36,267 nucleotides of DNA from an uncultured Pseudomonadales bacterium (GCA_964570775.1 CAZMZI010000001.1:1-36267), one strand, 5' to 3'. Positions 2,734 to 32,595 are shown, numbered from the stretch's first letter. Program-made: numbers and translations. Notes: generated by a model from the sequence alone, not told the origin.

Positions 2734-3407
2734 AACGTTAACCTCCAGAGTACCACACTATGTAGAAAATCAAGAGTATTAAGTAGAGTCATACCCTTGT
2801 CGTGGTCATGGTAAATAGTATCTATCGATACTACAGCGAATCTTAATTTAAATCGAGACACCCTGCACGCAATTTCCATTTCTACTTGATAACCAGGTGA
2901 CACCCAAAGAATTTGTTTGAGTACTTTCTTTTTGAACGCCTTATAGCCAGAGGGAATATCTGGTATGAGTGGTCCGCCAAAAAAAAACTTTACCACTAAT
3001 GAAGCAGCAAAGTTAGATACTCTTTTTATAAACGGCATTGCCGTATCTCTTTTACGTGCGCCAAATACAACATCATACCCTTCATCTAGCTTGTTTTGAA
3101 ATAATCCAAGTTCAGTAGTTGAGTGCTGATCATCAGCGTCCATGAGGATGACAGCCTGAGCACCGCAGTGCTTAAATGCATAGTCACACCCAGTTTTTAG
3201 GGCTGCACCTTTTCCTAGATTAATCTCATGTGTTAGTACATGTGGTGTGTATTTTTTTGCTATATGTGTGGTGTTATCAGTTGAACCATCGTCTACAAAA
3301 ATAACATTAGTGGTAATAGCACTAACCTTACTGAGTACTCTATCTACGTATTTGCTCTCATTGTAACCTGGAATCACCACCCATGTTTTTGTGTTTACCA
3401 CAGACAT
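2730..3407 (-). CDS. GT2 glycosyltransferase, short DPM1/GtrB-like form (candidate polyprenyl-phosphate sugar synthase).
   Basis: 225 aa with WVVIPGYNES, IFVDDGSTDNT, NLGKGAALKTG, LMDADDQH (DxD), PSGYKAFKKK. ATGA overlap with the DUF2304-like gene. Confidence 0.85.
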   Translation of the reverse strand: MSVVNTKTWVVIPGYNESKYVDRVLSKVSAITTNVIFVDDGSTDNTTHIAKKYTPHVLTHEINLGKGAALKTGCDYAFKHCGAQAVILMDADDQHSTTELGLFQNKLDEGYDVVFGARKRDTAMPFIKRVSNFAASLVVKFFFGGPLIPDIPSGYKAFKKKVLKQILWVSPGYQVEMEIACRVSRFKLRFAVVSIDTIYHDHDKGMTLLNTLDFLHSVVLWRLTL

Positions 3408-8957: not shown

Positions 8958-10544
8958 CTATTCCTTAACCTTCCATGTGTTATCTTCCCATGTTAGTAGC
9001 ATTTTCTCAACATTGCTCCTATCACTTTCTTGAGCTATGAAGTGATACTTTCCGAGTTTCTCACCATATCTAAAGCCAATTTTGTCTGGGTTTTGTTTTA
9101 CTACAGTAGTAAAAAAAGTATTTGGATCTAATTTAAGATACCAAGCAACTATAATATAGTGGTATCCTCCTCCATCAATAATTGCTACTTGAGCATCTGA
9201 AGCAGTCTCAGTTTTTGTTAGTGCACTTGAAATGCCACCTTGGTACAAGATTCTCATTTGCTCAGGATATCTAGCAAAATAGGTACTAACGTAGACACCA
9301 AAAAAAATAGTTGAACTGATTATAAAAAGGTAACCCACAAATGATACTGCTCTCTTTTTTTCGTATTTTTTTACTACAATACTGATTCCTTTAACACCAA
9401 TGAGCAGTAACACAACAAAAAAGAAAAGACTTCTTGTGGTATGTGGGGTGTCAACAGTTATTACTGAGGGGAACAAACTCATAAAGAGCAAGGCAACAAG
9501 AAAGAGTTCTTGTTTACACTTCGCTGCTTCCTTAAAGTCGTTACCTATCATTTTTTTTAGCACATAGACGACAACAATAGCAGTTCCAAGTAGGGAAAAT
9601 ATATAGACTGGCCACACAATGTTTCCCCAGTTTGGTAATGTATGCCAAGGATGAGTTCCACCTCGAATTGTAACAAAACTTGGCGAAAAACTTGCCATTG
9701 TTGCTTTTATAAGTAACTGCATGTAATACACGTACTTACTCCCCAAAGTTGATTGTAGATAGGATGGCAAAGACAACCGATATTCAACAGATTTTGCCCA
9801 AACTAACTCATCATTAAAAATAGTGATAGAACTTTTTTGTGCTGTAAGTGGTGCAAGGGTGACAAAAAAGAAAAAAGCTATGAATCCACACATTATAACA
9901 ATTGGCAACCATGCTTTCCAAAGTTTAACTCCATACCAGAAAATGAGCAAAATGGTAATAAATGGAACATATAACAATGGCGTGTTGTAAGTGCCGCATG
10001 CCATAAAAAGTAGTAGACCAGATACAAGTTGTAACCATTTGTTCTCTCTAGCTTTCAATCCAACTGCCAAGAAAAGAACAAACAACACAAGTGCAACATT
10101 GGCTTCAAAAGCTAATCTGGAATAGAAGAAAAAAACAGGCGAAGTGGCAATAAGAAAAGCATATAAAACTCTCCATTTTTTGCTCAAATTAAAACTATCT
10201 GCCAGATAGTAACTGACAACTATAAGCAAACCTCCCGCCAGAGCAGATGGTAAACGAACAATTGCATCGCTATACCCAAAGAGCGTGAAAAGTGGAACTA
10301 AGCTGAGTGGATATCCAAGAAGTTTATAGTCTCCAAAGGACTCGAGCGCCAATGGCCATGACCTGCCCCACTCATCTTTGCCTGATTCTCTTAATAAGAG
10401 TGCGTTGTAGGCTAGAGCTGCTTCATCCCTGTTTAAAATACTCTCAGAGCCCAAATTAAGCCAAACTAACCGTAAGATCACTGAAATACTGGTTATAAGA
10501 ATAAGCAATAAAAGTACACTATTTTTCTTGTGCATAGAGTCCAT
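8958..10544 (-). CDS. ArnT/PMT-like (GT39/GT83-type) GT-C membrane glycosyltransferase, paralogue A.
   Basis: 528 aa and polytopic. Motifs: NRDEAALAYNALLLRESGKDEWGRSWPLALESFGDYKLLGYP, VRLPSALAG, SPVFFFYSRLAFEAN, RGGTHPWHTL, ITVDTPHTTRSLFF, plus a soluble C-terminal domain. An alternative ATG lies at 10535. Confidence 0.75.
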   Translation of the reverse strand: MDSMHKKNSVLLLLILITSISVILRLVWLNLGSESILNRDEAALAYNALLLRESGKDEWGRSWPLALESFGDYKLLGYPLSLVPLFTLFGYSDAIVRLPSALAGGLLIVVSYYLADSFNLSKKWRVLYAFLIATSPVFFFYSRLAFEANVALVLFVLFLAVGLKARENKWLQLVSGLLLFMACGTYNTPLLYVPFITILLIFWYGVKLWKAWLPIVIMCGFIAFFFFVTLAPLTAQKSSITIFNDELVWAKSVEYRLSLPSYLQSTLGSKYVYYMQLLIKATMASFSPSFVTIRGGTHPWHTLPNWGNIVWPVYIFSLLGTAIVVVYVLKKMIGNDFKEAAKCKQELFLVALLFMSLFPSVITVDTPHTTRSLFFFVVLLLIGVKGISIVVKKYEKKRAVSFVGYLFIISSTIFFGVYVSTYFARYPEQMRILYQGGISSALTKTETASDAQVAIIDGGGYHYIIVAWYLKLDPNTFFTTVVKQNPDKIGFRYGEKLGKYHFIAQESDRSNVEKMLLTWEDNTWKVKE

Positions 10545-12213
10545 ATCCTGTTGGGTAACGATCTAGTTCACGGAGTGAAGCAGCTGAAAAAACAGAACTA
10601 ACATAGCCAGGTTCTGCTAGTAACACTGAATTTCCTGAATCACTTAGAAAAGTCTCAGCTCTAAACTTGATGTTTCTTAACTGTAGTTTAGTATCAAAGC
10701 TAGAAAACTCTGTACCAGTTTGACGTATTTGTTGCACTTCGTTAGGTGAGTATTCATACAATAACATCCATAAATACAACCGAGTATCTGGAGTTTGCAC
10801 GTACACGGTTTCATAGGATTTACTTAATTCAACAGCATCATGCGCAATATCTCGATAGGTATCTTGCCAGGATTTTTTACTCATTGTTGGATATATGGTT
10901 CTGTAATAATGAACAAATTGCATAAAGCTAAACAAAGTACCGCAAACAATTGCAAGAGTTGTTGCTGTAATAAAAAACTGCGTTATTTTGTTGGTTTGAT
11001 ATGTAAGCATCCAGAATAATCCAAACCCAAGAATTAAAGAAAGTGGTGCTAAAGCAAAAAGAGAACGCTGAGCATGGGGAACTTCTAACGGTATTGATGC
11101 TGGCACTAAAGCTACTACTAGCCAAAATAGTATAAACAAACTTACTTTGCGACTTTTGAGAATCAGAGAAAGTAGTCCTACTATAAAAAAGACAAATGTT
11201 GGATATAAAAAAAGACCAAATACACCCGTACCATGTCTTAGGTTTTGATCACCGGTAAAAAAAAGGTAACTAGGGTGTAGATGTGTTGTAATATTTGTCA
11301 CAATTTTTTTAAGCAAAAAAACCCTTCTATTAAAGAAGAGACCATCAATTCTCGAGTTTGCAATACTTTGTACTTGGTTTGCCTCAATAACAAAAGTACT
11401 GTTGTTTAGCACTGATGCGGCACTAAGCCTAACTGTTTGACTTGCCGAATATGAACTTGATCTCCACATTGGTACTAATATAGCTGCATACAACAGAAGT
11501 GCCGTGATACTTACACCAATCAACGTGCGTTTGACCGAATTGGAACTCTTGAACCATTCCAAGACTGTAAACGCTATAAATACTAGTGGCCAAATAAACT
11601 GAACAGCAAAATAGGTATAGGTGGCAAAAGCACCGACTAACGCGGAAAGTAGCAGAAAAACTATTTTTCTTTGTTCAAAACTTTTTAAAACAAAAACAAA
11701 AGAAAGTAAAACAAGAAATTGAGCAAAAGCACTTTCAAACCCTACAATAGAATAATGTATAGCCCAAGGTGAGAGTGCAACCATTGCGGCAATAGATAAA
11801 AATAAATTCTTTTCTTCTAGTTTTGGTAGTGACTTACAATACCTTTGGTAGATTGCTACTCCTAACCAAGCAGCCAAAAAAATAGTAGCAACACCACCTA
11901 TAAGATTTGGGAGTCTTACCAGCCAGTCATAATCCGGTAGAATTCGATATAGCACACTTACAACCCAGATATATCCAGGAAGCTTATAATCACCATAAGA
12001 CAAAAAAAATGGTTGAAGCCAAGTTTTTCCATGTATATCAGTTGCAAAATGTGCAACTGATCGTGCATCTACTGCAATAGCCACCTCATCCCAATACAGA
12101 GGTTTTGTTTGACTAATAAACAAACCAATCCTTGTCAAAACTCCTAAACTCACCAAACAGAGTAGTAGTATCCAGATAATTTGCTTATGTAGCATGTCAA
12201 AATTATAACTCAT
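10519..12213 (-). CDS. ArnT/PMT-like GT-C membrane glycosyltransferase, paralogue B.
   Basis: Motifs: YWDEVAIAVDARSVAHFATDIHGKTWLQPFFLSYGDYKLPGY, VRLPNLIGG, SPWAIHYSIVGFESA, FTGDQNLRHGTG, IPLEVPHAQRSLFA. I place the start at ATG 12213 (MSYNFDMLHKQ...) or ATG 12195 (MLHKQIIWILLL...), by analogy with the short N-tails of the paralogues. The ORF-track GTG at 12330 would overlap the divergent gene. Confidence 0.75.
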   Translation of the reverse strand: MSYNFDMLHKQIIWILLLCLVSLGVLTRIGLFISQTKPLYWDEVAIAVDARSVAHFATDIHGKTWLQPFFLSYGDYKLPGYIWVVSVLYRILPDYDWLVRLPNLIGGVATIFLAAWLGVAIYQRYCKSLPKLEEKNLFLSIAAMVALSPWAIHYSIVGFESAFAQFLVLLSFVFVLKSFEQRKIVFLLLSALVGAFATYTYFAVQFIWPLVFIAFTVLEWFKSSNSVKRTLIGVSITALLLYAAILVPMWRSSSYSASQTVRLSAASVLNNSTFVIEANQVQSIANSRIDGLFFNRRVFLLKKIVTNITTHLHPSYLFFTGDQNLRHGTGVFGLFLYPTFVFFIVGLLSLILKSRKVSLFILFWLVVALVPASIPLEVPHAQRSLFALAPLSLILGFGLFWMLTYQTNKITQFFITATTLAIVCGTLFSFMQFVHYYRTIYPTMSKKSWQDTYRDIAHDAVELSKSYETVYVQTPDTRLYLWMLLYEYSPNEVQQIRQTGTEFSSFDTKLQLRNIKFRAETFLSDSGNSVLLAEPGYVSSVFSAASLRELDRYPTGYGLYAQEK

Positions 12214-12235
12214 TCCTGTGTATAATGGAGTCACC
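12214..12235. promoter_or_regulatory. 22-bp divergent junction between paralogue B (minus) and the plus-strand 3-gene block. It contains an RBS for the plus gene and a TATAAT hexamer.
   Basis: GGAG at 12227-12230 lies 5 nt before ATG 12236. A perfect TATAAT sits at 12221-12226, but it is too close to the RBS to serve a leadered transcript. Real promoters must lie largely inside the flanking coding sequences. Confidence 0.2.
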
Positions 12236-13780
12236 ATGAGAATAAGGTGGTTCATAGCTTTTTTACTTTTCATTTCCCTCGCTTTTCGTTTTTGGTATTT
12301 CTCCACACACGTAGTAGTAAGTAATGACACTCTCAGAGACGCACAAATTGTTGAAGAGCTTACAAGATCGGGAAACTATCTACCTACAGTTGGGCCAAAA
12401 GCAAGTGTTGGAAATTTTTATCTACCACCACTTTACTATCAAGTTCATCTTTTGTTTTCTGTACTCTCAAATCACCACCCTTTAACCATGAATGTTGTGA
12501 ATACATTTATCGAAGCTCTAACCCCTGTAGTGGTTTTTTTGCTACTTCTTAAAGTATCGAGCAAACACTTTGCTTTCATTCTTTCACTTTTGTATGTATT
12601 TGCACCACTCCCTGTTATTTTCGGAACTAGAGCATGGAATCCAATAACAATACCTTTTTTTACCTCACTTGCAGTGCTACTTTGGCTGCACTTTTTGGAA
12701 ACAAAAAAAAGATATCTTATTCCTATCATGGTTGCCGCAGTTACTGTGGCACTTCATTTACACTACCAATCCGTGGTAGTTCTTCCCTTTTATCTCATTT
12801 GTTTTTTTTGGTCTATCAAAACATATCCAAAACTGTTGTGGTATTGGTTACTCGGCGCAAGTATAGCGGTACTCTCACTTTTACCCTATGTAGTGGGTGA
12901 GGCACAAAATCAGTGGCAAAACACCTTAGCAATACAAAATTATTTTTCTGGCGAACATTCTCAATACTTTGATAGAGTGTCGAAACCAGAATATATTTAC
13001 ACCTTTTTGCCCGCCTTTTTTGAACGTGTACTCACAAACAGCACAACACAGCAGCATTGGTTTGGGAGAGTCTTAGGACTCTCAGCAGTGAGTTGTTTTG
13101 TTTTGTTACTCAAGAAACAACCGGTGAAGTGGAAAACTCAAGATAAATATCTGTTTTTATTACTTAGCTATGTGATAAGCATAGTAATTGCTCTACGTCT
13201 CTATAAAGGTGACAAAATAGACTACTATATGAGTACGTTGTTCACGGCACCACTTTTCTTTCTTGCAGCCCTCAGTAAAATACATACTAAAGCAGCAATA
13301 GCTGGTGCTAGTATCCTTATTCTTTTTGCATTTAAAACCACTGTAGCCATACCACAATTTAATGATCTAAAAGAACTTGATGCTGTGGTAAAAACACTTA
13401 AACAGCATAGTACTGTGGAAGGCTTTCGCTACTTTTTTTATGATATTCGACAAGCAAACACCTTCAGTTATCTCATTTACAAAAACCCTGAAATAAAAAT
13501 GAATCAGAAAAGCAGTACTATTGTTGACATATTTGAGTCAACAGCAACCATTTCCATATCACCAACTCTATGTAGTAATTCTTATAAAGAAGAGCAATCA
13601 AATGCTGAAAGGTTTTCACAATTTAAATGTGAATATGACTACCAACCCACTGTACCTTCAATGAAGTTTAAAGATTTTGCTATTCAAATTGGAACGGTTA
13701 CTGATACAAATGGAATTGAAGTAAAACATAGTGTTGATTCATCACACGGTACGGATATACTGCTAACAGACCTTTTTTGA
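12236..13780 (+). CDS. Polytopic membrane protein, ArnT/PMT_2-like GT-C candidate (subtype 2, paralogue of 129-1676).
   Basis: 514 aa from ATG 12236, which has a GGAG RBS 5 nt upstream (the ORF-track GTG at 12218 is less likely). The motifs SNDTLRD, TVGPKASVGNFYLPPLYYQVHLLF and TRAWNPITIPFF are shared with 129-1676. Hydrophobic N-terminal two-thirds, soluble C-terminal domain. Confidence 0.65.
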   Translation: MRIRWFIAFLLFISLAFRFWYFSTHVVVSNDTLRDAQIVEELTRSGNYLPTVGPKASVGNFYLPPLYYQVHLLFSVLSNHHPLTMNVVNTFIEALTPVVVFLLLLKVSSKHFAFILSLLYVFAPLPVIFGTRAWNPITIPFFTSLAVLLWLHFLETKKRYLIPIMVAAVTVALHLHYQSVVVLPFYLICFFWSIKTYPKLLWYWLLGASIAVLSLLPYVVGEAQNQWQNTLAIQNYFSGEHSQYFDRVSKPEYIYTFLPAFFERVLTNSTTQQHWFGRVLGLSAVSCFVLLLKKQPVKWKTQDKYLFLLLSYVISIVIALRLYKGDKIDYYMSTLFTAPLFFLAALSKIHTKAAIAGASILILFAFKTTVAIPQFNDLKELDAVVKTLKQHSTVEGFRYFFYDIRQANTFSYLIYKNPEIKMNQKSSTIVDIFESTATISISPTLCSNSYKEEQSNAERFSQFKCEYDYQPTVPSMKFKDFAIQIGTVTDTNGIEVKHSVDSSHGTDILLTDLF

Positions 13781-13791
13781 TACACATACTC

Positions 13792-15492
13792 ATGAACCTA
13801 CATAAAGCATTTCTAAAAATAGTAAAAGAACACAGCATCTATTTGTTCATAATTGGCTGCTTTGCCCTCTTAGGTTCACTGCCTTTTTTTCATGAAGGTT
13901 TGTACACCGCACATGATATTTGGCATCAAGTAGCAAGAATTTTTCACTATACCCAAGCTATCAAAGACGGTCAGTTATTCCCAACCTGGATCAGCACACT
14001 TTCTCAGGGTCATGGCTACCCCTTGTTTATTTTTTCATATCACATGCCATGGATTGTTGGCACGCCACTGGCATTACTTGGGATAGATATTCAACTGGTG
14101 CTTAAAATTCTGTTTGTCTCCTCGTTTTTTGCATCTGGAGTTGCTTTGTATGCAGTAGCATGGCATCTAACTAAACACAAAATTGCTGCCACTACAGCAG
14201 CAATACTGTACCTTTTTGCTCCCTACCACTTCTTAACAATGTATGTGAGTGCAGCAATTGGCACACAGTTTCAATTCGTTGTTTTACCGTTACTGTTCTT
14301 AGGTGCATCCTGGATTCTAGATAAAAAGCCTCGAATTGGAGTACTCTTATTAGCTTTAACAACTGCTGCCGGTATACTAAGTCATCTCATTACGTTTGCA
14401 TTTATGTTTTTTGCTCTCATCTTGTATGTTTGTTACTCATTTAAGTTCACCAACATTCCTCAGCATAGGAAAAGAAAAGTGATAGTATTACTGGTTTATA
14501 GCATCTTTTTAGGATTACTTTTAGTAAGTTTTTACCTCATTCCATTTGTTGCATATAAAGACGCTATTATTGCTTCACTACCTGGAAATGGTTTTACTGA
14601 CATTTATAAAAGTAATTTTGTCACGCTCAAGCAGTTACTCTACTCCAAATGGGGATTTGGACCAATTATAAGTAATGCAAAGGATGGTGAAATCTCACTC
14701 CAAGTTGGAATTGCTCATTGGATTGCTGTGGCTACCACTCTCGGTCTTTCTTTCATTACGATACTCAAGAAGAAGAAAATAAACACACAAGTATTCTTCT
14801 TTAGTGCCCTGTTTATAACCAGCGTAATAGGCATGTTGGATATTTCAAAAAAACTTTGGGAGGTAACAACTCGTTTTGTTGCTTTTGATTATCCTTTTAG
14901 GTTACTTATCATAGCTGTTTTTGCTGGATCGATACTTTCAGCATTCGCGGTATCATTCTTTAAAAAATACAAGTATGTGCCGCTCACCTTAGCACTAGTA
15001 TTTGTACTTATTGCTAGTTATACAAATAGAAACCACATAAGAGTCAACTTATACACAGATGTTGAAACAAGTTTGTATGTACGCTCTGAAACGACTACAA
15101 ACACGTTTCATGAGTACTTACCAAAAGGAGCAAATTCACAACTTCTTTCTAAAGATGCAGACAGTATTATTACTGCACCAGACGCAAGTGTCTCAGCTAC
15201 TAATATAAAACAATCCACAGATACTTTGCTTTTTGATGCATCTGTATCTGCAGACAGTGATGTCGCTTTTCGACAGTTCTCTTTTCCAGGACAAACTTTG
15301 TATGTCGATGGCATTTATACTAACCATACCGTTGACGACAAAGGAAGAATACAAACAAAATTAAACGCTGGTATGCACTCTATTCTAATACAATATGAAG
15401 ATACAACTCCAATTTTGCTTGGGAAAGTACTCACAGTACTTGGTTTATTATTTATTGTTCGATTTGTAATGAGAGAAAGTAAAAAGGAATGA
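13792..15492 (+). CDS. Polytopic membrane protein, PTPS-related/YfhO-like GT-C candidate (paralogue 2 of 3).
   Basis: Motifs: FHEGLYTAHDIWHQVARIFHYTQAIKDGQLFPTWIS...HGYPLFIFSYHMPW, mid FDYPFRLLII, C-terminal FPGQTLYVDG...LNAGMHSILIQY followed by a terminal TM helix. Start is ATG 13792. The alternative is TTG 13777, which overlaps the upstream stop. Confidence 0.6.
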   Translation: MNLHKAFLKIVKEHSIYLFIIGCFALLGSLPFFHEGLYTAHDIWHQVARIFHYTQAIKDGQLFPTWISTLSQGHGYPLFIFSYHMPWIVGTPLALLGIDIQLVLKILFVSSFFASGVALYAVAWHLTKHKIAATTAAILYLFAPYHFLTMYVSAAIGTQFQFVVLPLLFLGASWILDKKPRIGVLLLALTTAAGILSHLITFAFMFFALILYVCYSFKFTNIPQHRKRKVIVLLVYSIFLGLLLVSFYLIPFVAYKDAIIASLPGNGFTDIYKSNFVTLKQLLYSKWGFGPIISNAKDGEISLQVGIAHWIAVATTLGLSFITILKKKKINTQVFFFSALFITSVIGMLDISKKLWEVTTRFVAFDYPFRLLIIAVFAGSILSAFAVSFFKKYKYVPLTLALVFVLIASYTNRNHIRVNLYTDVETSLYVRSETTTNTFHEYLPKGANSQLLSKDADSIITAPDASVSATNIKQSTDTLLFDASVSADSDVAFRQFSFPGQTLYVDGIYTNHTVDDKGRIQTKLNAGMHSILIQYEDTTPILLGKVLTVLGLLFIVRFVMRESKKE

Positions 15493-16223
15493 AAAAAAAT
15501 AATGCAACAGTCATTGCAGTTATGCCTGCATATAATGCAGCCAAAACACTCAAAAAAACGGTAGCAGATATCCCAAAAGATACTGTTGATACCATCATTT
15601 TGGTTGATGACAATAGCTCGGACGAAACAGTCCGCGTTGCAAAAGATCTTGACTTAAAAGTAGTTAAGCATCCCCAGAACAGAGGATATGGTGGCAATCA
15701 AAAAACATGCTATACCTTAGCATTATCAGAAGGAGCTGATGTTGTCGTTATGATCCACCCTGACTATCAGTACGATAGTACGTTAACTGCTGATATGGTA
15801 AAACCCATTATTGATGGCAAGTTTGATGTAATGTTAGGCTCACGAATTCGCACCAGAGCTGAGGCACTGGCAGGAGGTATGCCAAAATATAAATATATTG
15901 GCAACAGATTTTTAACATTAATTGAAAATACTGTACTTGGTCAAAATTTGTCCGAGTATCACACCGGATTTAGAGCATTCAGTAAAAAAGCGTTAGAAAA
16001 GGTTCCCTTTCACACCTACTCGGATGACTTTGTTTTTGATTCGCAAATACTCTTTGGGTGCATAGCAAATAATGAACGCATTGGTGAAATACCTGTTCCA
16101 GTTAGGTATTTCCAAGAAGCTTCTTCAATCAATTTTTGGAGATCTTGCGTTTATGGCTTGAGCATACTCAGAGACTTAGTTCTCTTTGCCCTCACAGGTG
16201 GAACTTACTTTATTCGTCGCTAA
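15489..16223 (+). CDS. GT2 glycosyltransferase, DPM1/GtrB/CsbB-like short form (candidate polyprenyl-phosphate sugar synthase).
   Basis: 244 aa with VIAVMPAYNAAKTL, IILVDDNSSDET, NRGYGGNQKT, MIHPDYQYD (DxD-position variant), YHTGFRAFSKK. ATGA overlap (15489-15492) with the preceding YfhO-like gene. Confidence 0.85.
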   Translation: MKKNNATVIAVMPAYNAAKTLKKTVADIPKDTVDTIILVDDNSSDETVRVAKDLDLKVVKHPQNRGYGGNQKTCYTLALSEGADVVVMIHPDYQYDSTLTADMVKPIIDGKFDVMLGSRIRTRAEALAGGMPKYKYIGNRFLTLIENTVLGQNLSEYHTGFRAFSKKALEKVPFHTYSDDFVFDSQILFGCIANNERIGEIPVPVRYFQEASSINFWRSCVYGLSILRDLVLFALTGGTYFIRR

Positions 16224-17926
16224 TTTTGACAACTATTGTCTGTAATTACAGAGCGAGCATTATATACAAACACATATGAGTGCACTCCATTAGAAGCTTT
16301 ACCTTCATAAAGCAGTTGAGCACCTTCAATCCTTTGGTCGGTAACAAATACTGCATCTACATTCTTCTCTACAGCTTTACAACCAATCGATTCTAAAGAA
16401 TCATTTGTTGCAAATACTCTCCCCAACTCAACAGTATGTTGAAATCCAGATGATTCAAGCTCACCTAATTTTGCTAATTCTTGATACTTCTTAGCAGGCA
16501 TCTTTGTATAGAATGCATAAAACATAAGTGGGTCTGAGTAGAATGGTTTGAAATAGATTTGTGAAGTTTGGGGCAAGGTTTGTAAGTAAGTATGTAAACT
16601 AGGTAAGTAACTTTGGTAGTAGTACTCATTTTTAGTTACATGCACTGAAAAATACTCTGTAAGATACAAAAAACTAAACGCAGAAGTTGTCACTACTAAC
16701 AAGGCAAACATTGCAGGCTGGTACTTCTTTTGCAACCACTGCATAACAAGATCCACACCATAAAGCACTGCAATCAAAACAAAGGGATACCACATTGATA
16801 TACGCACTTTTTGTGGATCACCTACCAAAATAGTTGGTAGAGGTGCAAACAAAACTCCAACGAGCAAAAGTGCTCTTTGATACCGTGCAAATACATTTTT
16901 TGCAGCAAAAACACCTACCACACCAATAATAAAGAATGGATAAAAAATTGGGTAGAGCTGTGCAAACCCCTCAACGGTCAAGAAAGTAAGGTCACTTTCA
17001 CCTACTGAGACCAAGTAGTTTGGTGAGAAAGTGGATAGGTACCTTTCAAGTAAGGTTCTACTAATAAGTACTGGTTTATTCCAAACCATGTCACAAAGTA
17101 AACGAGGATACTGCATGTCACAAAACGTTCTGTTCTCGTTAATTCTCAGTGCCAATCCAGGATCTGAAAGTATGCCAACTTGGTTAAACCGAGTACTGTT
17201 TACACCAACAATACTTGGTGCAAATAAAGGAGCAATGATAAGTAAAAAACTGCCTGCGAACAGCGAGAATTGTTTAGATTTAATCTTTTTTCTAACAACT
17301 AAGATACCTAATGCACAAACCCAAATGAGGGCAGTTACTGGTCTATATGCTATGTAGGCATACCATGTGAGCGCTAAAGCAGAACCAGCAACCAAGAACC
17401 AAGTACTTACATTTGATTTGAGTGCTTTAAATAGTGCAGCCAAACCAATCACTAGTAACAGTAATGCAATATTGGATTCAAACCCAAACCTACTCAAAAA
17501 AAACGTCCAGGGGCTAACTGCCGTAATGAGCGCACCAAGTGCACTGAGGCGTTTAGAAAATGAAAGTTCACGAAGCAACCAATAACTAGCAAGAATGAGT
17601 AGTGTACCTGCTACAACTGAAGGGATTCTGATTGCCAAAATTGATAATCCAAATATAAAAACAGGCAACAAATCTAAATAAGCCATTGCTGGTAGTTTTT
17701 GGTCGCCGAATCCTCTAAACACAAGTGGCAATCGTTGTCCATGTTCATCTGCCCCTGTTTCAAGTAGGGAGTGCGCCAAGTATCCAAAATGAAGTTCATC
17801 AATAAGAGCTCCTTTTGGTGCTGAATCAATTTTCCAGAGTCGAATACCAAAACCAATGAGTGCTATTAACACTACTATTGCAATAGGATACAATAAACGA
17901 ACTGTTGTTTTTTTCTGATTCTTCAT
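16220..17926 (-). CDS. ArnT/PMT-like GT-C membrane glycosyltransferase, paralogue C (divergent).
   Basis: 568 aa with LIDELHFGYLAHSLLETGADEHGQRLPLVFRGFGDQKLPAM, IRIPSVVAG, SPWTFFLSRFGFESN. The VPHxxR motif is degenerate (ILVGDPQKVRISMW). Its stop codon overlaps the stop of the convergent GT2 gene. Confidence 0.7.
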   Translation of the reverse strand: MKNQKKTTVRLLYPIAIVVLIALIGFGIRLWKIDSAPKGALIDELHFGYLAHSLLETGADEHGQRLPLVFRGFGDQKLPAMAYLDLLPVFIFGLSILAIRIPSVVAGTLLILASYWLLRELSFSKRLSALGALITAVSPWTFFLSRFGFESNIALLLLVIGLAALFKALKSNVSTWFLVAGSALALTWYAYIAYRPVTALIWVCALGILVVRKKIKSKQFSLFAGSFLLIIAPLFAPSIVGVNSTRFNQVGILSDPGLALRINENRTFCDMQYPRLLCDMVWNKPVLISRTLLERYLSTFSPNYLVSVGESDLTFLTVEGFAQLYPIFYPFFIIGVVGVFAAKNVFARYQRALLLVGVLFAPLPTILVGDPQKVRISMWYPFVLIAVLYGVDLVMQWLQKKYQPAMFALLVVTTSAFSFLYLTEYFSVHVTKNEYYYQSYLPSLHTYLQTLPQTSQIYFKPFYSDPLMFYAFYTKMPAKKYQELAKLGELESSGFQHTVELGRVFATNDSLESIGCKAVEKNVDAVFVTDQRIEGAQLLYEGKASNGVHSYVFVYNARSVITDNSCQN

Positions 17927-17960
17927 GGAAAAAACTGCTTTCTAGTAACTATTATCACAT
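17927..17960. promoter_or_regulatory. 34-bp divergent control region between GT-C paralogues C and D, with overlapping -10-like hexamers on both strands.
   Basis: Plus strand: TATTAT at 17950-17955, 5 nt before ATG 17961, with no RBS (a leaderless-type arrangement is possible). Minus strand: TGtGATAAT (complement of 17950-17958), an extended -10-like element about 24 nt upstream of ATG 17926. No convincing -35 on either strand. Confidence 0.2.
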
Positions 17961-19739
17961 ATGCCATCAAAGAAAAACATTGTACTTTTTTTACTCCTTT
18001 TCCTACTTATAGTTACAACACGGTTATTCAAAATTTCAAGCGTTCCAAGCGTTATTAGTCATGATGAGATCTATTACCCTGTACAAGCTAAAACTATTGC
18101 GCTAGCGTTTACAGACCCAAGTGGTAACTGGAATCCACTCTCTTTAACAGCAGCACATCCATTATATGCCGAATTACCAGGACTAATCATGGCACCAGCA
18201 AGTTTCTTTTCAGACCCTCTACTTGCAGCTCGGTTTACACATGCTGTGCTAGGCAGTTTACTGGTACTCATTGTAGCTAGAATTGGCTTCCAGGTAACAA
18301 AACAGAGAAGTATTTTTTGGGGAATATTTTTGGTAGGTTTAGTAAATCCATGGCTCTTTCAATTTTCCAGAATGGGATTTGACGCACTATTCAGTTTGTT
18401 TTTTTACTTTTTAGGGATACTACTCTATTTACATCAGTCACCAAAAGTAAGACTTCTTGCCATCGCTAGTTTTATTCTAGGATTTTATCAGTATCAAGGA
18501 CTCAAGCTTGTCTTTATCCCACTCGTACTTGCAGTAACACTTTTTGGCTACTTGTACAGAAAACACCATACTTACTCACATCAACACGAGTTTGCTCAAG
18601 CTGCAACTCTGATTGCAGTAGCACTTCTTCTTAACTTAAGATTTATTGTTGGTATTCAAACTCAGGTAGCACAAGGTAGAACTGGAGATCTCATTTTTTC
18701 AGATCCAACTATACCAGCCCAAGTGCAAGTGCTACGTCAACAAAGTATTGTTTCACCAGTTCAAGAACTCTTTAATAACAAAGCAACCGTTGTTATTCAT
18801 ACATTTCTTACTAACTACGCTGCCAGTTTTAACCCAACACAACTTTTTATCTATGGTGAGCCACTCAGGAATCCCTTTTCTGTCTGGTCAAAGGGTATGT
18901 TTAATCCAGTTGACGCACTCCTTATTTTTATTGGATTGCTATCACTGCTGCTACAAAAAAAGTATCGCTATTTTGGCCTTTTTTTACTGTTCTTAGTGGT
19001 ATTAGCACCACTACCCTCTGCACTTAACGCTAAAGGCATCTGGATAATGTTCAGATCAAGTTTGTATATTCCTACACTCGTTTTGTTATCTGGTATTGGT
19101 TTATCGTATTTACTCAAAAAATCAAAAATTGTAGGATTTGCTCTTTGTTGTATCTACTTACTTTTATCTGTACCCTTTTTCTATGATTACTTTTACCGCT
19201 ATCCTGTTATTGGTACATCAGGTTCATACTTTTCTGAGCGTATAGTTGCAAACTATGTATCTCGTAATTCAGACAAAAAAATTGTGGTTTTAGTAGATGA
19301 AACACAGTTTGTATACAACTCACTCTTACATTTTAATAGATTAGTGACACAACAAAACCTTTCTGAAATTAAACAAAGTTACCAAACAAATCAGTTTACT
19401 TTAGGTAAACTAATTGTAGACAACAGATGTGTGTCGAAGCGCGATATTCAGCAGGGTACTGTAGTCATCGCAGCAGCTAGTATACCTTTTTGTGAGGAGA
19501 CAGAAATCATTAAGTTCACTAAACCGGTACTGACATCAGCAATTCAGTCACTGTTGGACAGTGGTGAGCAATTTATTATATATAACGATGAGATATGTAC
19601 AAACTATGCACTGAACTCTAGTATTCATGTCAAAACTGATGCATTTGCAATTGAATCACTAGGAGAAAAAGAATTCTGTGAGACATTTTTTACCCAAACT
19701 TCACCAGGTAAAAGAATCACTTCTGAAATTATGCTTTAG
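17961..19739 (+). CDS. ArnT/PMT-like GT-C membrane glycosyltransferase, paralogue D (the most divergent).
   Basis: 592 aa. It keeps the loop-1 acidic pair (SHDEIYYPVQAK) and NPWLFQFSRMGFDAL. It lacks the FGDYK and VPHxxR motifs of the other paralogues. Polytopic, with a soluble C-terminal domain of about 170 aa. Confidence 0.6.
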   Translation: MPSKKNIVLFLLLFLLIVTTRLFKISSVPSVISHDEIYYPVQAKTIALAFTDPSGNWNPLSLTAAHPLYAELPGLIMAPASFFSDPLLAARFTHAVLGSLLVLIVARIGFQVTKQRSIFWGIFLVGLVNPWLFQFSRMGFDALFSLFFYFLGILLYLHQSPKVRLLAIASFILGFYQYQGLKLVFIPLVLAVTLFGYLYRKHHTYSHQHEFAQAATLIAVALLLNLRFIVGIQTQVAQGRTGDLIFSDPTIPAQVQVLRQQSIVSPVQELFNNKATVVIHTFLTNYAASFNPTQLFIYGEPLRNPFSVWSKGMFNPVDALLIFIGLLSLLLQKKYRYFGLFLLFLVVLAPLPSALNAKGIWIMFRSSLYIPTLVLLSGIGLSYLLKKSKIVGFALCCIYLLLSVPFFYDYFYRYPVIGTSGSYFSERIVANYVSRNSDKKIVVLVDETQFVYNSLLHFNRLVTQQNLSEIKQSYQTNQFTLGKLIVDNRCVSKRDIQQGTVVIAAASIPFCEETEIIKFTKPVLTSAIQSLLDSGEQFIIYNDEICTNYALNSSIHVKTDAFAIESLGEKEFCETFFTQTSPGKRITSEIML

Positions 19740-21400
19740 TGATTGATATCGAAGAAATACCACACATCTGCACCCACTTCTCCCTCATTTGATTCAATAA
19801 CTAAGTATTTTTTCGCAAACTGTGGATTACGAGATACCAGCAATCCTCTTTTAGCCGAATCAGTTGCAATGCTATCAAGCTGAGCAAAATCATATCGGTA
19901 CTTGTCAAATTGCAAGGCTTTTTTTAGCCCCTCCGAATCAGCCCACACAACTGTTTCTTGAAACACAGTCGGATTTGTTTTCGAATAGAATGCCTGAAAA
20001 ATATAAGATGAGTCAATTGTTCTATTGGCATTGCTAGTACCATCTGAGTCTATAAAAATAACATCATATTTGTGCTCAAGTTCAGAAATTCGCTGGGCAA
20101 CTTTGCGATAACCAGGTAACCATAAAGGATCAAGTTTCCATTGGTGCATAAAAAAGTAACGAGAAATAAATAAAAGATAGGTTGCGCTTAATCCAGAAAT
20201 CAAAAATGAGAGCAAAATCTTTTTGTTCTCTGTTCTCCATAGTGAGTAAATACCAAGAGCAGCAAAAACGGTTACAAGAAAGTGAAAATCAAGTAATCTG
20301 TTAGTAACAGGTGCGTCTATAGTAAGTGCATCTGGGATAGGAGATAGCAATAAGTATCCAAGCAAAAACAATGCCGGTTTTTGCCTTTGAATCGTCCCTC
20401 GTACCACACAATAGCCACCATATAGTGAAAGGGGTAACACAAACCAAGCCAAATTACCAAAACCTATGGGCGATAGTGAGTGCCAACCATTTTTTCCACC
20501 TTCAACAAAGAGATACACAGGATTGAACGCTGCTAGGTATCCTTTCAAAAAATCACGAATAAACTCGAAAATCGGTGAAGCAATAATTTGTCTTGCTCTA
20601 TGACTTTCTACCGGTGTTTGTATAAGCAAAAAGTAGTTGTCGTTATATGTATTCACATATTTTTGTGGAGAAATAATTGTGGTTTCTAGTTTTCCTGAGG
20701 TTACAGCACTCATAGTTAAGTATACACCACCAATTACAAGAAAAATAAGTGCAAAACCAGCCAAAGTTTTGAACTTTCCTTTTTCAAAATATTCTTTTCT
20801 AAACACAAGCAAAGATAAACAAACTAATACTGGTGCCAATAGCAGTGCCACATTATAAAATAAGAAACTGAGCCCCAAAAAAATTGCAGCAAAAAGGTAA
20901 AAAACAACTTGTTTTCTTGCTCTCAGTAAAAACGTCAACCCTAGAACAAACAGTGTTAAACTCCCAATTGGTTCATACGCTGTCCTAGATAGAAACGTGT
21001 GCCAAATCGAAAAGGCAACTAAAAAAGCTGTTGCAATTGAAAAACGTGTCGAAGCAAACAGTTCTTTTACAAATAAATATGAAACTGGTATTAAGAGAGA
21101 TCCCAGCAAAGCAGTGCCTAACCTAGCTGCTAAAGGCGTCAAACCAAACAATTTTATAAATACTGATGTAAAGTAAATCAGCCCAGGAAGTTTATAATCA
21201 CCAAAAGATTCGAAAAAGAAAGGAAAGGGTCCAGCTCCATTTTCATCATAACCTGTCTCTAAAATCGAATATGCAGTATATGCAATACTTAACTCGTCTC
21301 TATGTAGTTCTCTTGGTACATGAGAAAGTGATACAACTCTAGTGAATAACCCAAATGCCGTGAGTAAGGCAAGTAAAAAAGGTATCCAAATTTTCTTCAT
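19736..21400 (-). CDS. ArnT/PMT-like GT-C membrane glycosyltransferase, paralogue E.
   Basis: Motifs: HRDELSIAYTAYSILETGYDENGAGPFPFFFESFGDYKLPGL, SIWHTFLSRTAYEP, VEGGKNGWHSLS, LTIDAPVTNRLL. Start at ATG 21400 (MKKIWIPFLL...) forms an ATGA overlap with the upstream stop. The ORF-track start at 21427 is a TTG. Confidence 0.75.
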   Translation of the reverse strand: MKKIWIPFLLALLTAFGLFTRVVSLSHVPRELHRDELSIAYTAYSILETGYDENGAGPFPFFFESFGDYKLPGLIYFTSVFIKLFGLTPLAARLGTALLGSLLIPVSYLFVKELFASTRFSIATAFLVAFSIWHTFLSRTAYEPIGSLTLFVLGLTFLLRARKQVVFYLFAAIFLGLSFLFYNVALLLAPVLVCLSLLVFRKEYFEKGKFKTLAGFALIFLVIGGVYLTMSAVTSGKLETTIISPQKYVNTYNDNYFLLIQTPVESHRARQIIASPIFEFIRDFLKGYLAAFNPVYLFVEGGKNGWHSLSPIGFGNLAWFVLPLSLYGGYCVVRGTIQRQKPALFLLGYLLLSPIPDALTIDAPVTNRLLDFHFLVTVFAALGIYSLWRTENKKILLSFLISGLSATYLLFISRYFFMHQWKLDPLWLPGYRKVAQRISELEHKYDVIFIDSDGTSNANRTIDSSYIFQAFYSKTNPTVFQETVVWADSEGLKKALQFDKYRYDFAQLDSIATDSAKRGLLVSRNPQFAKKYLVIESNEGEVGADVWYFFDINH

Positions 21401-23058
21401 TTTTTTTCTGCTACTAACAGCTGCCAAACTATTGTACCAGTTAAACTCGATACAGTATCTATCTTTGTGAAGGAGTAATCTTGATTTTGAGACTCAACAC
21501 TTTGCACTTCTTCTGGAGCAGCTACCAGAATACTATCTTGAGTTAGCTTCGGTACCTCTCTAAAAAAACGTTTATTTTCGAAGGTTAAAAACTCACCCTG
21601 ATCCATCACAGCCGTTTTGGCTTCTTGTTGAACACGTACAGGATCTGTTTTGGTATAGAACCAGTAGTACATTGCAGGTCTGCCCTCAAAGCGAGTGATA
21701 TATACCAAGGCGTTTGGGTATGATTTTTCAAGTGCTACCACTTTGCTAATCATCTCTGCATATCCATACTGCCATTCTTCGCCAGAATTAATTGGATACA
21801 CCTTGAAGTAGTAGCGCAAGTACTGTGCAGAACAAACTAGATATACCGCTAGTATCACGCTAGTTGCCACCCAAGTAGGAACAGAGCGTGGAATATTCTT
21901 AAGAAAAGTGGAAATACCAACAGTTATTAAAAGTATAAACACAGGGAAAGCCGGCAGCGTGCGTAAAGCGTGTGGAACAGCTTTAGTAATTGATGCTGGT
22001 AGTAATGCACAGCCCAACCAAAACAGTAGAAAAACACTTACTTTTCGATTTTTTTTCCACAATGCAGCACTACCTACTAGCAATAAGAGACTCTCAAAAA
22101 TATATAACTGACCAACAAAGTGCGTCGAGTGACGTATGTTTTCATCGCCAGTTAAGAATAGATAACTAAATGAAAAGTGAGAAAGAGCATTCTCAATAAT
22201 TTTTTGTCCAAAAAGAACATATCTATGGTACAAAACTCTCGATGCAAAACTAAAATTATTTTGTTCTCTAAGAAAATTACTTCTTTCAATAATACTGCTA
22301 TCACTAAAAATGCTCGTTTCTTGTAAACGATGTGAAAGTTCAGGATCTGAGGCTTTCACAAAAAGTGGAATAAAAAACAAAGCACTCAACCCAACAACTA
22401 GCACAAGCGGTGTAACTGATTTTTTAGATCTAGCTTCTGTAAGATACACAAAAACTGCAGAAGCAAAACAAAGCATGGGAGCAATAAATCTAGCAGCATG
22501 GTAGGTATATCCAGCAAAAATAAAAAGAAAACTGGTTAACACTGCAATCAGTGGCCAATATGCAGTTTTCTTGTACCAAAAATGATGGGTATACATAACT
22601 CCAATAATGCCCCAGACAATTAGTGCTGTTGCAAAGTTTGCTTCCCACATGCTTCTACTAAACTGTAATCCCCAAGGTGAAACAGCTGCTACTAACAAAC
22701 TCCATAGTGCTGATATTCCCCATCTTCTTGCCAACACAGAAATACCAATAACAATAAAAATGCCAGCAATAGCGTTAGGTAGTCTCACCGCAAAATCTGT
22801 TAACCCAAACGTTGCTAAGGATGGTAAAAGTGCATAAAAGTAACCCGTAGGTTTCCAATCACCAAAAGACTTAATGGCAATTACAGGCCATGAAGCACCA
22901 TGATGATCTCTGCCTGTTTGTAACAATGAGTAAGCATCATACCCAACCGCAACTTCTTCCCAATATAAACTAGGAGGAACCTTGGTTAACTGGTAGAGCC
23001 GAAGAAAGCTAGCAAGAACAAGAATAAGCAAGAAGGTGAAAATTTTTTTATTTGTCAT
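21397..23058 (-). CDS. ArnT/PMT-like GT-C membrane glycosyltransferase, paralogue F.
   Basis: 553 aa with YWEEVAVGYDAYSLLQTGRDHHGASWPVIAIKSFGDWKPTGY, VRLPNAIAG, SPWGLQFSRSMWEAN, LTGDENIRHSTH, ITKAVPHALRTLPA. Confidence 0.75.
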   Translation of the reverse strand: MTNKKIFTFLLILVLASFLRLYQLTKVPPSLYWEEVAVGYDAYSLLQTGRDHHGASWPVIAIKSFGDWKPTGYFYALLPSLATFGLTDFAVRLPNAIAGIFIVIGISVLARRWGISALWSLLVAAVSPWGLQFSRSMWEANFATALIVWGIIGVMYTHHFWYKKTAYWPLIAVLTSFLFIFAGYTYHAARFIAPMLCFASAVFVYLTEARSKKSVTPLVLVVGLSALFFIPLFVKASDPELSHRLQETSIFSDSSIIERSNFLREQNNFSFASRVLYHRYVLFGQKIIENALSHFSFSYLFLTGDENIRHSTHFVGQLYIFESLLLLVGSAALWKKNRKVSVFLLFWLGCALLPASITKAVPHALRTLPAFPVFILLITVGISTFLKNIPRSVPTWVATSVILAVYLVCSAQYLRYYFKVYPINSGEEWQYGYAEMISKVVALEKSYPNALVYITRFEGRPAMYYWFYTKTDPVRVQQEAKTAVMDQGEFLTFENKRFFREVPKLTQDSILVAAPEEVQSVESQNQDYSFTKIDTVSSLTGTIVWQLLVAEKK

Positions 23059-24691
23059 TGGTTAAAAAGAATAAAAATCTTGTGCTGCCATCTGCACCTT
23101 TAATACGATGCACAGCTCTTTCTACTGGTATATCTAAATCGCTACCACTTGCAACAATTAAGGCTTTAGGTCGGGCAAAATCGGCAATAGTTACAGGATC
23201 AGCAAAGTGGTAGGTACTAAGTGAACCGCCATGATACGCAATGGGGTTCGTTTTTCTTACAAACAAAGCAAAAATGTAGGGCTGACCATACTCAGAAGTA
23301 AAGACAATTTTATCCACTTTTGGTTTTCCATTTATTCCTAACTCATACTCCCTTGCTATCTGGAAAGCTTCAATATACCCTTCAGGATAGTCATCAACTG
23401 CCAAACCAGGAAAAACGGTGTAGTAGTGGTGTAGATAGGCACTAAAAATAAGAAAGTACACTGCACACAAAGTACCCACCACAGCATCTACTAACGTATT
23501 TTTCTCGCCATGAGAACCCGTTTTTATTGCATTCATTCGACTTCTCTGTAAACATCCAATCAGTCTCTTTGCTCCAATTGCAGCAGCCAAAAAGAATCCA
23601 ATACTTGCAAACAGTGCTCTATTTCCGTGAGGCACATCTTCTGTAATTACTGCTGGAACCAAACCAGTAAAAAGCAATAAGACGATAACAAAATCATACT
23701 GTTTAAAACCTTTACACTTATTAAAACACAACTGTAGTAGTATCTGAGCCAAATACAGCATACTTAACACATAGGTGACAGGATTAAGTACTCCCCAAGC
23801 ACCGCCCGAATGTCTGAAAGTAGTTGTGGCACCTTGCATCATGAAAGCAGGTGAAAAATGAACCACAAAATTTATCACCAGCTGCTGCAAGCTTGATAAT
23901 AAACTTTGCTGACCAAAAAAGGTAACATTTGCTCTCGTTAAACCAGCTCCCCAAAATGAATCATATAGTAGTGGTAGCATACCCACTGCAAAAGTAACAA
24001 TAAAAACACCAATGGGTTTGATGCGGTTTCGAAGGTGATTTCTAAATAGTACTGATAATCCAACCAAAAGCAAAGGAATAACAACTTTTGAACTATGATA
24101 GGTGTACAGAGACAAAACAAAACTCATGCTTGCTAGTAAAAACAAAATGAGCGTCTTTCGAGTAGTTTGCAATCTGATTCCTCTAAAAATAAAAAATAAT
24201 CCCCAGACATAAAAGGTAAAGGCCAAACCAGACTCAAATGCTCCTCTACTAAAATGAAGATGCCAGGGTGAAAAAGTAATAAAACTACCAACAAGTAAAC
24301 TTAATTGCCTACGCTTTTCCTCTCCATAAAACACTTCCAATGTTAACAAGATTGCACCAGCTACAGAAAACACACCGGCAATCACAAAGGGGATCCTCAC
24401 AGCAAATGGCGTTAGTCCCAATACAGCCGTAAAAAAACTGCTTAGATATATGGCAAAAGGTGCTTTATAGTCACCAAACGACTGAAACGAAACCGGGAGC
24501 CTATGCAACCACTCGTCTCTCCGTGTGTTCCAAATTGCAAAACCATTGTATCCAATTGCTGCCTCATCCCAAGTGAGTCCAGTGGGGACTTCGGTAAACC
24601 GATATAAACGGAGCAAAAGTGCAAGTGCTAGAAGCACAACTATACATGAAAAATACCAATGCTTAGTGAGCCAAACTAAAAAAGACTTCAT
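23048..24691 (-). CDS. ArnT/PMT-like GT-C membrane glycosyltransferase, paralogue G.
   Basis: 547 aa with TWDEAAIGYNGFAIWNTRRDEWLHRLPVSFQSFGDYKAPFA, VRIPFVIAG, SPWHLHFSRGAFESG, QGATTTFRHSG, ITEDVPHGNRALFA. Confidence 0.75.
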   Translation of the reverse strand: MKSFLVWLTKHWYFSCIVVLLALALLLRLYRFTEVPTGLTWDEAAIGYNGFAIWNTRRDEWLHRLPVSFQSFGDYKAPFAIYLSSFFTAVLGLTPFAVRIPFVIAGVFSVAGAILLTLEVFYGEEKRRQLSLLVGSFITFSPWHLHFSRGAFESGLAFTFYVWGLFFIFRGIRLQTTRKTLILFLLASMSFVLSLYTYHSSKVVIPLLLVGLSVLFRNHLRNRIKPIGVFIVTFAVGMLPLLYDSFWGAGLTRANVTFFGQQSLLSSLQQLVINFVVHFSPAFMMQGATTTFRHSGGAWGVLNPVTYVLSMLYLAQILLQLCFNKCKGFKQYDFVIVLLLFTGLVPAVITEDVPHGNRALFASIGFFLAAAIGAKRLIGCLQRSRMNAIKTGSHGEKNTLVDAVVGTLCAVYFLIFSAYLHHYYTVFPGLAVDDYPEGYIEAFQIAREYELGINGKPKVDKIVFTSEYGQPYIFALFVRKTNPIAYHGGSLSTYHFADPVTIADFARPKALIVASGSDLDIPVERAVHRIKGADGSTRFLFFLTNDK

Positions 24692-32548: not shown

Positions 32549-32595
32549 GAACAATACTATTCTAACAACAGTTATATCAGATTAAAAACACAATC

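Follow-up and report, generated by a model that had tools for sequence, protein, structure and literature searches.

The 36,267-nucleotide stretch analysed here (GCA_964570775.1, CAZMZI010000001.1:1-36267; the whole of it is called the window below), deposited under the name of an uncultured Pseudomonadales bacterium, is one long, gene-dense glycan-synthesis cluster of about 37% GC. Between positions 8958 and 24691 it carries seven paralogous genes, A to G, whose products are large membrane proteins. Structural modelling places them among the GT-C glycosyltransferases, in the structural class of ArnT, oligosaccharyltransferases (OST) and PMT, with ArnT as the nearest relative. We consider it probable that these ArnT-like enzymes decorate a wall-linked glycopolymer outside the cytoplasm, with sugars taken from lipid-phosphate carriers. 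The host of the cluster is a tiny, uncultured bacterium of the Microgenomates type, within the candidate phyla radiation (CPR).

An ArnT-like GT-C fold

The assignment comes from the structural model of paralogue F (AlphaFold2, 87 sequences; predicted local distance difference test, pLDDT, 96.4; predicted template-modelling score, pTM, 0.94). When this model is compared with the PDB using Foldseek, the best matches are the ArnT structures 5f15 and 5ezm (E 2.5e-7, TM-score 0.54-0.55, 12% identity), followed by STT3, PglB, AglB, ALG12/ALG9, Pmt4, AftA and Pmt1/2, and all of the top 30 matches are GT-C enzymes. At the sequence level, A, C and E give weak matches to the Pfam models PMT_2 and PMT. 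PMT_2 lies above its cut-off in C and E and just below it in A (24.8 bits); for PMT (PF02366), C reaches 28.2 bits against a cut-off of 22.7, E stays below the cut-off, and A, B, D, F and G have no match. The fold search and these Pfam matches bear out the original prediction, made from the sequence alone, that the proteins are ArnT/PMT-class GT-C enzymes. Among NCBIfam models, the only matches are sub-threshold ones to Agl23 (TIGR03663, weakly matched by A and C), and no ArnT model is matched by any of the seven. Pfam scans find no MIR domain in any of them.

Two other routes to an assignment were tried and given up. One relied on sequence only and was dropped, as the Pfam and NCBIfam matches were weak or absent and ArnT was reached in a profile search of PDB sequences only at E 0.018-0.035. 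The other, a residue-by-residue mapping onto E. coli ArnT by hhalign, was abandoned because of its low probability and of an alignment that is unreliable past loop 1 and the second transmembrane (TM) helix. In the accompanying search for homologues of E. coli ArnT, the 120 matches listed were all at least 76% identical and the profile was not deepened.

By its secondary structure, the model of F contains 11 predicted TM helices followed by a C-terminal alpha/beta domain (residues 425-553). Judging from the helices of the model and from the distribution of Lys and Arg, the N-terminus would lie inside and the C-terminal domain outside: the short cytoplasmic loops hold 14 Lys/Arg per 58 residues and the short external loops 4 per 35, three of these four being conserved motif residues. 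The same helices and positive-inside count support the predicted placement of the conserved motifs on the external face. In F numbering, loop 1 would carry [DE]E, D51 and FGDxK, the outer end of TM2 R92, the TM3/TM4 turn SPW..FSR..WE, the TM5/6 turn Y186, the long loop 4 the RH motif, and the TM9/10 loop PHxxR.

Seven intact and old paralogues

ORF calls and translations confirm seven intact open reading frames (ORFs), as had been predicted. Six lie on the minus strand: A (8958..10544, 528 aa), B (10519..12213, 564 aa from the ATG at 12213), C (16220..17926, 568 aa), E (19736..21400, 554 aa), F (21397..23058, 553 aa) and G (23048..24691, 547 aa). D (17961..19739, 592 aa) is the only copy on the plus strand and the most divergent one. 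These lengths, 528 to 592 aa, use the start codons of the original prediction. The longest ORF of B starts upstream of that ATG, at the GTG at 12330, and that of E also starts further upstream, at a codon of the GTG/TTG class as in B; for E, a 554-aa orthologue in GCA_964556485.1 backs the shorter start.

The seven proteins are true, old paralogues. In an all-versus-all BLASTP comparison, pairs share 22-30% identity, with E values mostly between 1e-8 and 1e-57. D stands apart: it matches A only at E 0.006 and G not significantly, and F at E 6e-20. The nearest genome, GCA_964556485.1, has the same cluster, with one-to-one orthologues of B to G that are 48-69% identical to them, against the 22-30% found between paralogues. 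As paralogues this distant are saturated, nonsynonymous (dN) and synonymous (dS) divergence was estimated from these orthologue pairs: dN lies between 0.23 and 0.33, and dS either reaches 2.2 or more or cannot be computed, a saturation that leaves only an upper bound for dN/dS, of about 0.1-0.15. Such dN values against a saturated dS indicate purifying selection on every copy, D included. The original prediction had also noted that the codons for FGDxK differ synonymously among copies, as a codon comparison confirms, and had concluded that each copy is old and maintained on its own. Orthologue identity, dN against dS and the separate subfamily clusters found across about 80 species all agree with this conclusion.

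The family extends far beyond the window. Orthologues of F number in the hundreds, at 40-47% identity, and come from metagenome-assembled genomes (MAGs) of Patescibacteria (Pacebacteria, Woesebacteria, Microgenomates and Beckwithbacteria). At 30% identity, 291 family members form nine groups, with each of the seven window proteins in a different one. Assignment by best hit gives 104 members to the F subfamily, 64 to G, 51 to B, 48 to A, 11 to D, 9 to C and 6 to E, the A-type and B-type counts being taken among neighbours of F orthologues. In GTDB species representatives, 49 loci that are centred on an F orthologue and span 20 kb or more, from 49 species, have 2-6 family members each within 10 kb of it, with a mode of 5. 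Multiplicity is therefore routine in the lineage. When representatives of 50%-identity clusters are searched with a profile of the seven proteins, 6,314 of them pass E <=1e-30 and 14,490 pass E <=1e-10. Databases already carry names for homologues: NCBI calls one of them 'glycosyltransferase family 39 protein' and JGI several '4-amino-4-deoxy-L-arabinose transferase-like'.

The gene order G-F-B-A recurs across Microgenomates and Pacebacteria genomes and is contiguous in most species, whereas only in the window and in its closest relative a block made up of E, D, C, a GT2 gene and two further genes, X5 and X4, stands between F and B. G-F-B-A is the conserved core array of the lineage, and E, D and C appear to be accessory, having arrived with the inserted block. 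This block looks like an accessory module bringing its own putative sugar-lipid synthase. Its genes (12218-21400) are on mixed strands; the loci compared include that of a more distant relative (L002, JBGTEY010000013.1) and others. The cluster is of Patescibacteria type, yet many of the MAGs that have it bear the title 'uncultured Pseudomonadales bacterium' and a few Methylococcaceae or Limisphaerales (L003, L007, L008 and others), which looks like mislabelled taxonomy in the source records.

Conserved motifs, core and variant copies

A four-part signature had been attributed to all seven copies. The motifs are positionally equivalent, occupying the same columns in a MAFFT alignment of the seven, and a motif scan finds the signature complete in A, B, F and G; it does not hold for D, nor in part for C and E. 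The acidic pair of loop 1, [DE]E, is present in 7/7 copies, as EE in F. The second half of motif 1, [FY]GD[YWQ]K, is found in six copies (FGDYK in A and E, FGDQK in C), D having AAHPLYAE instead. For motif 2, the three-residue spacing initially proposed between Pro and Gly is incorrect; the true spacing is R-x6-G (VRLPxxxxG, with VRLP in A), and the Pro is missing from D (ARFT) and E (ARLG). Motif 3 occurs in its strict form in B, F and G only, while a relaxed form with an invariant final Glu or Asp is seen in all seven (SPV..YSR..FE in A). Motif 4, PHxxR, is confined to A (TPHTTRSL), B, F and G: C has PQKVR and thus no motif-4 His, E has PVTNR (APVTNR, His replaced by Val) and D has WIMFR, so that the Arg alone is invariant.

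Two conserved features had been overlooked in the original prediction. One is a fifth external motif, G[DG]x[NH]x[RW]H (residues 304-310 of F), present in A (as GGTHPWH), B, E and F, reduced to RH in G and absent from C and D; the other is an invariant Tyr, Y186 of F. Across 230 assigned members, the universal residues are [DE]E, D51, R92, R135, [ED]139, Y186 and R366 (F numbering). D keeps all of them, with DE in loop 1 and D139. It lacks FGDxK and the PH of motif 4, replaced by Trp-Ile/Val, and the G-D-x-N-x-R-H motif is deleted; 11 D-type orthologues share these losses. More generally, the deviations of C, D and E are conserved inside their own subfamilies, which points to functional variants, not decay. 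The WWD motif of OST-type enzymes was not found in the seven by motif scan.

Relation to the functional residues of ArnT

ArnT reportedly depends on D158 for catalysis, and H265/H267 and R270 are likewise said to have roles in it. In HMMER alignments, K69 of F pairs with K88 of the chain of ArnT from C. metallidurans (ArnTCm), which is K85 of the literature, and E139 of F with chain D161, the literature D158, chain numbering being the literature numbering plus 3. K85 of ArnT touches the phosphate of the lipid carrier, and E84 and K85 touch the metal in the apo form (PMC7801869). Function of Burkholderia and Salmonella ArnT requires RYA and YFEKP in loop 1, a loop Arg and a Glu of the periplasmic C-terminal domain (PMC5377068). 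RYA and YFEKP are not conserved in the family, which has [DE]E-x-A-x-x-Y and FGDxK[PL] instead, and only the Lys and, loosely, the acid before it correspond. The family pattern [DE]E...G.D...FGDxK[PL] reads as a divergent version of the E. coli ArnT pattern DE.RYA...GDW...YFEKP. The invariant late-loop Arg, R366 of F, may occupy the site of the phosphate-binding Arg or Tyr of GT-C_A enzymes (R375 in PglB, R404/405 in STT3, Y345 in ArnT; PMC7801869).

The C-terminal soluble domain

The soluble C-terminal domain that had been predicted is real: in the model of F it is a compact alpha/beta domain with a pLDDT of 93.6. The strings quoted as its shared pattern (Y/F...K..P) align in 6/7 copies in the MAFFT alignment, and not in all seven as claimed. 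The domain is strongly conserved within the F subfamily (WQYGY, GRPAMYYWFY..DP..VQ and DQ.E). A carbohydrate-binding module, a lectin or a fold like the solved periplasmic domain of ArnT were considered for it and rejected, its best matches being DHFR/methyltransferase-like alpha/beta proteins at E ~0.05 and TM-score 0.3.

The ratio of identity within orthologues to identity between paralogues is 2.0-2.3 for external loops 1 and 4 (EL1 and EL4) and for the C-terminal domain, and about 1.6 for the TM segments. This divergence of the external regions fits a specificity located on the outer face and is not proof of acceptor binding. Seven distinct specificities, with the C-terminal domain as a candidate acceptor-binding module, as initially proposed, are a plausible reading.

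Gene context of the paralogues

Candidate donor-forming enzymes lie close to the seven genes. A GT2-DUF2304-GT2 module (1680..3407, minus strand) encodes two short GT2 proteins of 235 aa (1680-2387) and 225 aa (2730-3407), whose best matches are in the class of DPMS (5mlz), ArnC, GtrB, PpgS and AglJ. Between them is a 117-aa DUF2304 protein, a small membrane activator of the GacJ/Rv3632 type (2380-2733, minus strand; PF10066, 53.7 bits against a cut-off of 25.5). The module could provide polyprenyl-phosphate-sugar synthases and their activator, and L002, the more distant relative, has it too (19102-20820). DUF2304 proteins GacJ and Rv3632 stimulate the Und-P-GlcNAc synthase GacI and the polyprenyl-P-GalNAc synthase PpgS, respectively (bioRxiv 10.1101/180810). 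A third short GT2 (15489..16223, plus strand, 244 aa), part of the inserted block that separates F from B, has AglJ, PpgS and Dol-P-hexose transferase as its best NCBIfam matches. All three short GT2s score below the equivalog cut-offs of the DPMS/ArnC/GtrB/PpgS/AglJ-type matches.

The rest of the cluster contains a Wzx-type flippase (29298..30806, minus strand; Pfam Polysacc_synt_3/Polysacc_synt), a ligase of the LytR-CpsA-Psr (LCP) family, which attaches glycopolymers to peptidoglycan (32598..33767, plus strand), and RmlB-like (33996-35024) and RmlC-like (34951-35643) proteins, both on the plus strand and assigned by reading translations. It also contains a further protein of the NAD-dependent epimerase/dehydratase family and seven additional GT2/GT4 enzymes. 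The same gene context is found in relatives.

Six more large polytopic membrane proteins, from three families, are encoded at 129-1676 (plus), 4340-5485 (minus), 5482-7137 (minus; X3), 12218-13780 (plus; X4), 13777-15492 (plus) and 30803-32554 (minus). X3 is paralogous to the proteins at 13777-15492 and 30803-32554 (24-26% identity), the former of which matches Pfam PTPS_related. X4 is weakly related to the protein at 129-1676 and weakly matches TIGR03663 (Agl23), and the protein at 4340-5485 gives a weak match to a 'cell surface glycopolymer formation' family. All six are suspected GT-C enzymes; if they all are, 13 of the approximately 30 genes of the window would encode GT-C enzymes.

Proposed function and alternatives

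While fold, topology, paralogy, age, synteny and gene context could be established, we infer the donor, the acceptor and the roles of individual residues. In the scheme that we favour, the DPMS/PpgS/AglJ-like GT2s, with the GacJ-like DUF2304 activator, would load single sugars on polyprenyl phosphate at the cytoplasmic face, and the lipid-linked sugars would then be flipped outward. With polyprenyl-P-sugar as donor, each paralogue would add a single sugar, or form a single linkage, on an acceptor at the outer face. Catalysis would involve the loop-1 [DE]E acid and the invariant Glu/Asp at the start of TM4, and the lipid phosphate would be bound by the Lys of FGDxK and the invariant late-loop Arg. 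The acceptor would most likely be a peptidoglycan-linked cell-wall glycopolymer, begun in the cytoplasm by the GT2 and GT4 enzymes of the cluster, exported via the Wzx flippase and joined to the wall by the LCP ligase. The proposal agrees with the GT-C-based assembly of the mycobacterial wall and with the three- and four-component transmembrane glycosylation systems by which Gram-positive bacteria decorate wall polysaccharides. The four-component scheme combines a GT-A synthase, a small activator, Wzx and a GT-C enzyme (PMC9574508; bioRxiv 10.1101/180810), and the GT-C components of such systems are diverse in sequence and recognised mainly by structural similarity to ArnT or AglB (PMC9574508).

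Several observations weigh against this scheme. Its donor and acceptor are deduced from gene context; no GtrA-family flippase was found among the ORFs scanned and no priming phosphoglycosyl transferase in the window, and the single Wzx-type protein of the cluster could equally well flip the main repeat unit. The similarity of the family to ArnT in the profile search of PDB sequences is marginal, the hhalign probability is low, and B, D, F and G (4/7) match no Pfam model, even at E 5. The model of F has 11 predicted TM helices where ArnT has 13, and nothing in the PDB, ArnT included, significantly matches its isolated C-terminal domain (Foldseek; best E 0.048, TM-score 0.3). In hhalign, motif 4 is not paired unambiguously with any one residue of ArnT or OST, and D lacks a Lys matching the phosphate-binding one of ArnT. 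Finally, no characterised member or defined product was found, and the literature on GT39, GT-C or ArnT-like expansions in CPR/Patescibacteria gave nothing relevant. A known single-function family with routine multiplicity and a defined product had been named as the outcome that would overturn the idea of seven specificities; of this description, the routine multiplicity applies, and no defined product was found.

The seven proteins could instead be protein O-glycosyltransferases acting in the manner of PMT (GT39) on secreted or surface proteins, such as S-layer proteins or pilins, with polyprenyl-P donors and with a target class or sugar of its own for each paralogue. The sequence of C speaks for this, as it has DELHFG in loop 1, a DE-x-HFG string that we take to match that of PMT loop 1, and passes the Pfam cut-offs for both PMT and PMT_2, while E passes that for PMT_2 and A falls just short of it; the GT39 name given by NCBI to one homologue and the presence of Pmt4 and Pmt1/2 among the fold matches go in the same direction. 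ArnT and OST subunits nevertheless fit the model better, with a TM-score of 0.54 against 0.30-0.47 for PMTs. Pfam scans detect a MIR domain in none of the seven (0/7), and the soluble domain is C-terminal, as in ArnT. The neighbouring genes, with Wzx, LCP, Rml and many cytoplasmic GT2/GT4 enzymes, are moreover those of a typical wall polysaccharide locus. We thus regard an O-glycosyltransferase function as rather unlikely. That the seven are true ArnT orthologues, adding aminoarabinose to lipid A, is hardly credible, even though ArnT is the top fold match and JGI names several homologues after it: identity is 12%, RYA and YFEKP are not conserved as such, the model has 11 predicted TM helices and not the 13 of the published ArnT topology, in which the C-terminus is periplasmic (PMC5377068), and the arnA/B/D/E/F genes, in a comparison with E. 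coli, are absent from the cluster. Seven divergent paralogues per locus would furthermore be unfit for a single lipid A modification. Lipopolysaccharide synthesis is also not known from CPR/Microgenomates.

A further alternative concerns some of the copies, D especially and perhaps C and E, which could be ligases or polymerases using lipid-linked oligosaccharides, like WpsJ/WpsI, or non-catalytic partners of G-F-B-A. The absence of the FGDxK Lys, of the RH motif and of the motif-4 His is conserved among D-type proteins, and this His is also missing from C and E; D has in addition the largest C-terminal domain of the seven and lies on the opposite strand, and lactococci are known to have GT-C enzymes for the transfer or polymerisation of oligosaccharides (PMC9574508). 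D has nonetheless retained the loop-1 DE together with D51, R92, R135, D139, Y186 and R366, and its dN of 0.33 against a saturated dS is what would be expected of an active enzyme. This possibility therefore appears improbable to us, and the extracytoplasmic decoration of a wall-linked glycopolymer by all seven enzymes is the reading that we retain.

Comparison with known systems

In kind, the family diverges from other members of an enzyme class that is well understood, and its pathway would be of a familiar type. ArnT (GT83; C. metallidurans 5ezm/5f15, and the E. coli, Salmonella and Burkholderia enzymes) is its best structural match over the full length. Both have a cytoplasmic N-terminus, a long first external loop with an acid and, about 25-30 residues further on, an acid-Lys-Pro/Leu string (YFEKP in ArnT, FGDxK[PL] here) whose Lys aligns with K85 of ArnT. 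Further common features are an acid at the turn between TM3 and TM4, a conserved Arg where TM2 ends on the outer side, and a soluble C-terminal domain outside the membrane. In contrast to the single ArnT gene, seven paralogues are present here; there is no arn operon and lipid A is not an expected acceptor. With PMT, the family has the loop-1 DE and the Pfam matches of A, C and E in common, and differs from it by its C-terminal soluble domain, the lack of a MIR domain, a weaker structural match and a gene context of the polysaccharide type.

By gene content, the cluster resembles the S. pyogenes GacI/GacJ/GacK/GacL system and the lactococcal CsdAB/CsdCD and WpsJ systems, with GT2 synthase, DUF2304, Wzx, GT-C, LCP and dTDP-rhamnose genes. 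The published view of these systems, in which GT-C enzymes are diverse because they specify acceptors (PMC9574508), fits the divergence of the external regions seen here. These systems have however one GT-C enzyme per modification and usually 1-3 per genome, whereas the window has seven of one family and six suspected ones in 36 kb. In mycobacteria, numerous GT-C paralogues (EmbA/B/C, AftA-D, PimE, MptA-C and Rv3779, with Ppm1 and PpgS-Rv3632 for the donors and Lcp1) use polyprenyl-P-monosaccharides to build or decorate, outside the membrane, a polysaccharide linked to peptidoglycan, and the pair formed by PpgS and Rv3632 (DUF2304) has a counterpart in the window. AftA, EmbB, AftD and AftB are among the weaker fold matches of F, with a similarity below that of ArnT. 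The mycobacterial enzymes, by contrast, are classified in different GT families (GT53, GT85, GT87 and others), exceed the window proteins in size and do not occur in tandem arrays.

One tentative possibility, which we hold to be less likely than its contrary, goes further. Up to 13 GT-C-type enzymes of four families, in a cluster of about 35 kb conserved in Microgenomates of about 1 Mb, could constitute an extracytoplasmic assembly line with an invariant G-F-B-A core and accessory modules of the E-D-C type. Most of a complex peptidoglycan-linked heteropolysaccharide would then be built outside the cell from polyprenyl-P-monosaccharides, the C-terminal domain that is unmatched in the PDB reading the growing acceptor. 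This would be a strategy in the style of mycobacterial arabinogalactan, independently evolved in ultra-small episymbionts.

The cell envelope of CPR/Patescibacteria mediates attachment to the host and yet is biochemically almost uncharted. The most notable remaining point is that about one third of the 36-kb window encodes large GT-C-type membrane proteins, despite the very small size of these genomes. In public data, the family comprises no fewer than 6,300 clusters (50% identity), and no characterised member was found. The G-F-B-A core and the subfamily-specific external motifs offer concrete targets for annotation and for heterologous reconstitution.

Gene packing in the window

Neighbouring genes on the same strand overlap by 4-26 bp all along the window, which suggests tight operon packing. 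Convergent 3' ends overlap by 4 bp at two places, between the GT2 gene at 15489-16223 (plus) and C (minus; 16220-16223), and between D (plus) and E (minus; 19736-19739). In the divergent pair B (minus) and X4 (plus), the start codons are 4 bp apart (12213/12218), and the genes would overlap by 113 bp if B started at the GTG at 12330; in the divergent pair C (minus) and D (plus), 34 bp separate the genes (17926/17961). With such near-zero spacing, the promoters would have to be located within coding sequence, unless some of the start codons were called wrongly.

The RmlB-like and RmlC-like ORFs, as listed, overlap by 74 nt, and the start of the latter is therefore probably further downstream. 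At the right end of the window, GC content rises up to ~0.41, and the last ORF (35649-36080, minus strand, 143 aa), Cys/Phe-rich and with a TTG start, looks non-genic.

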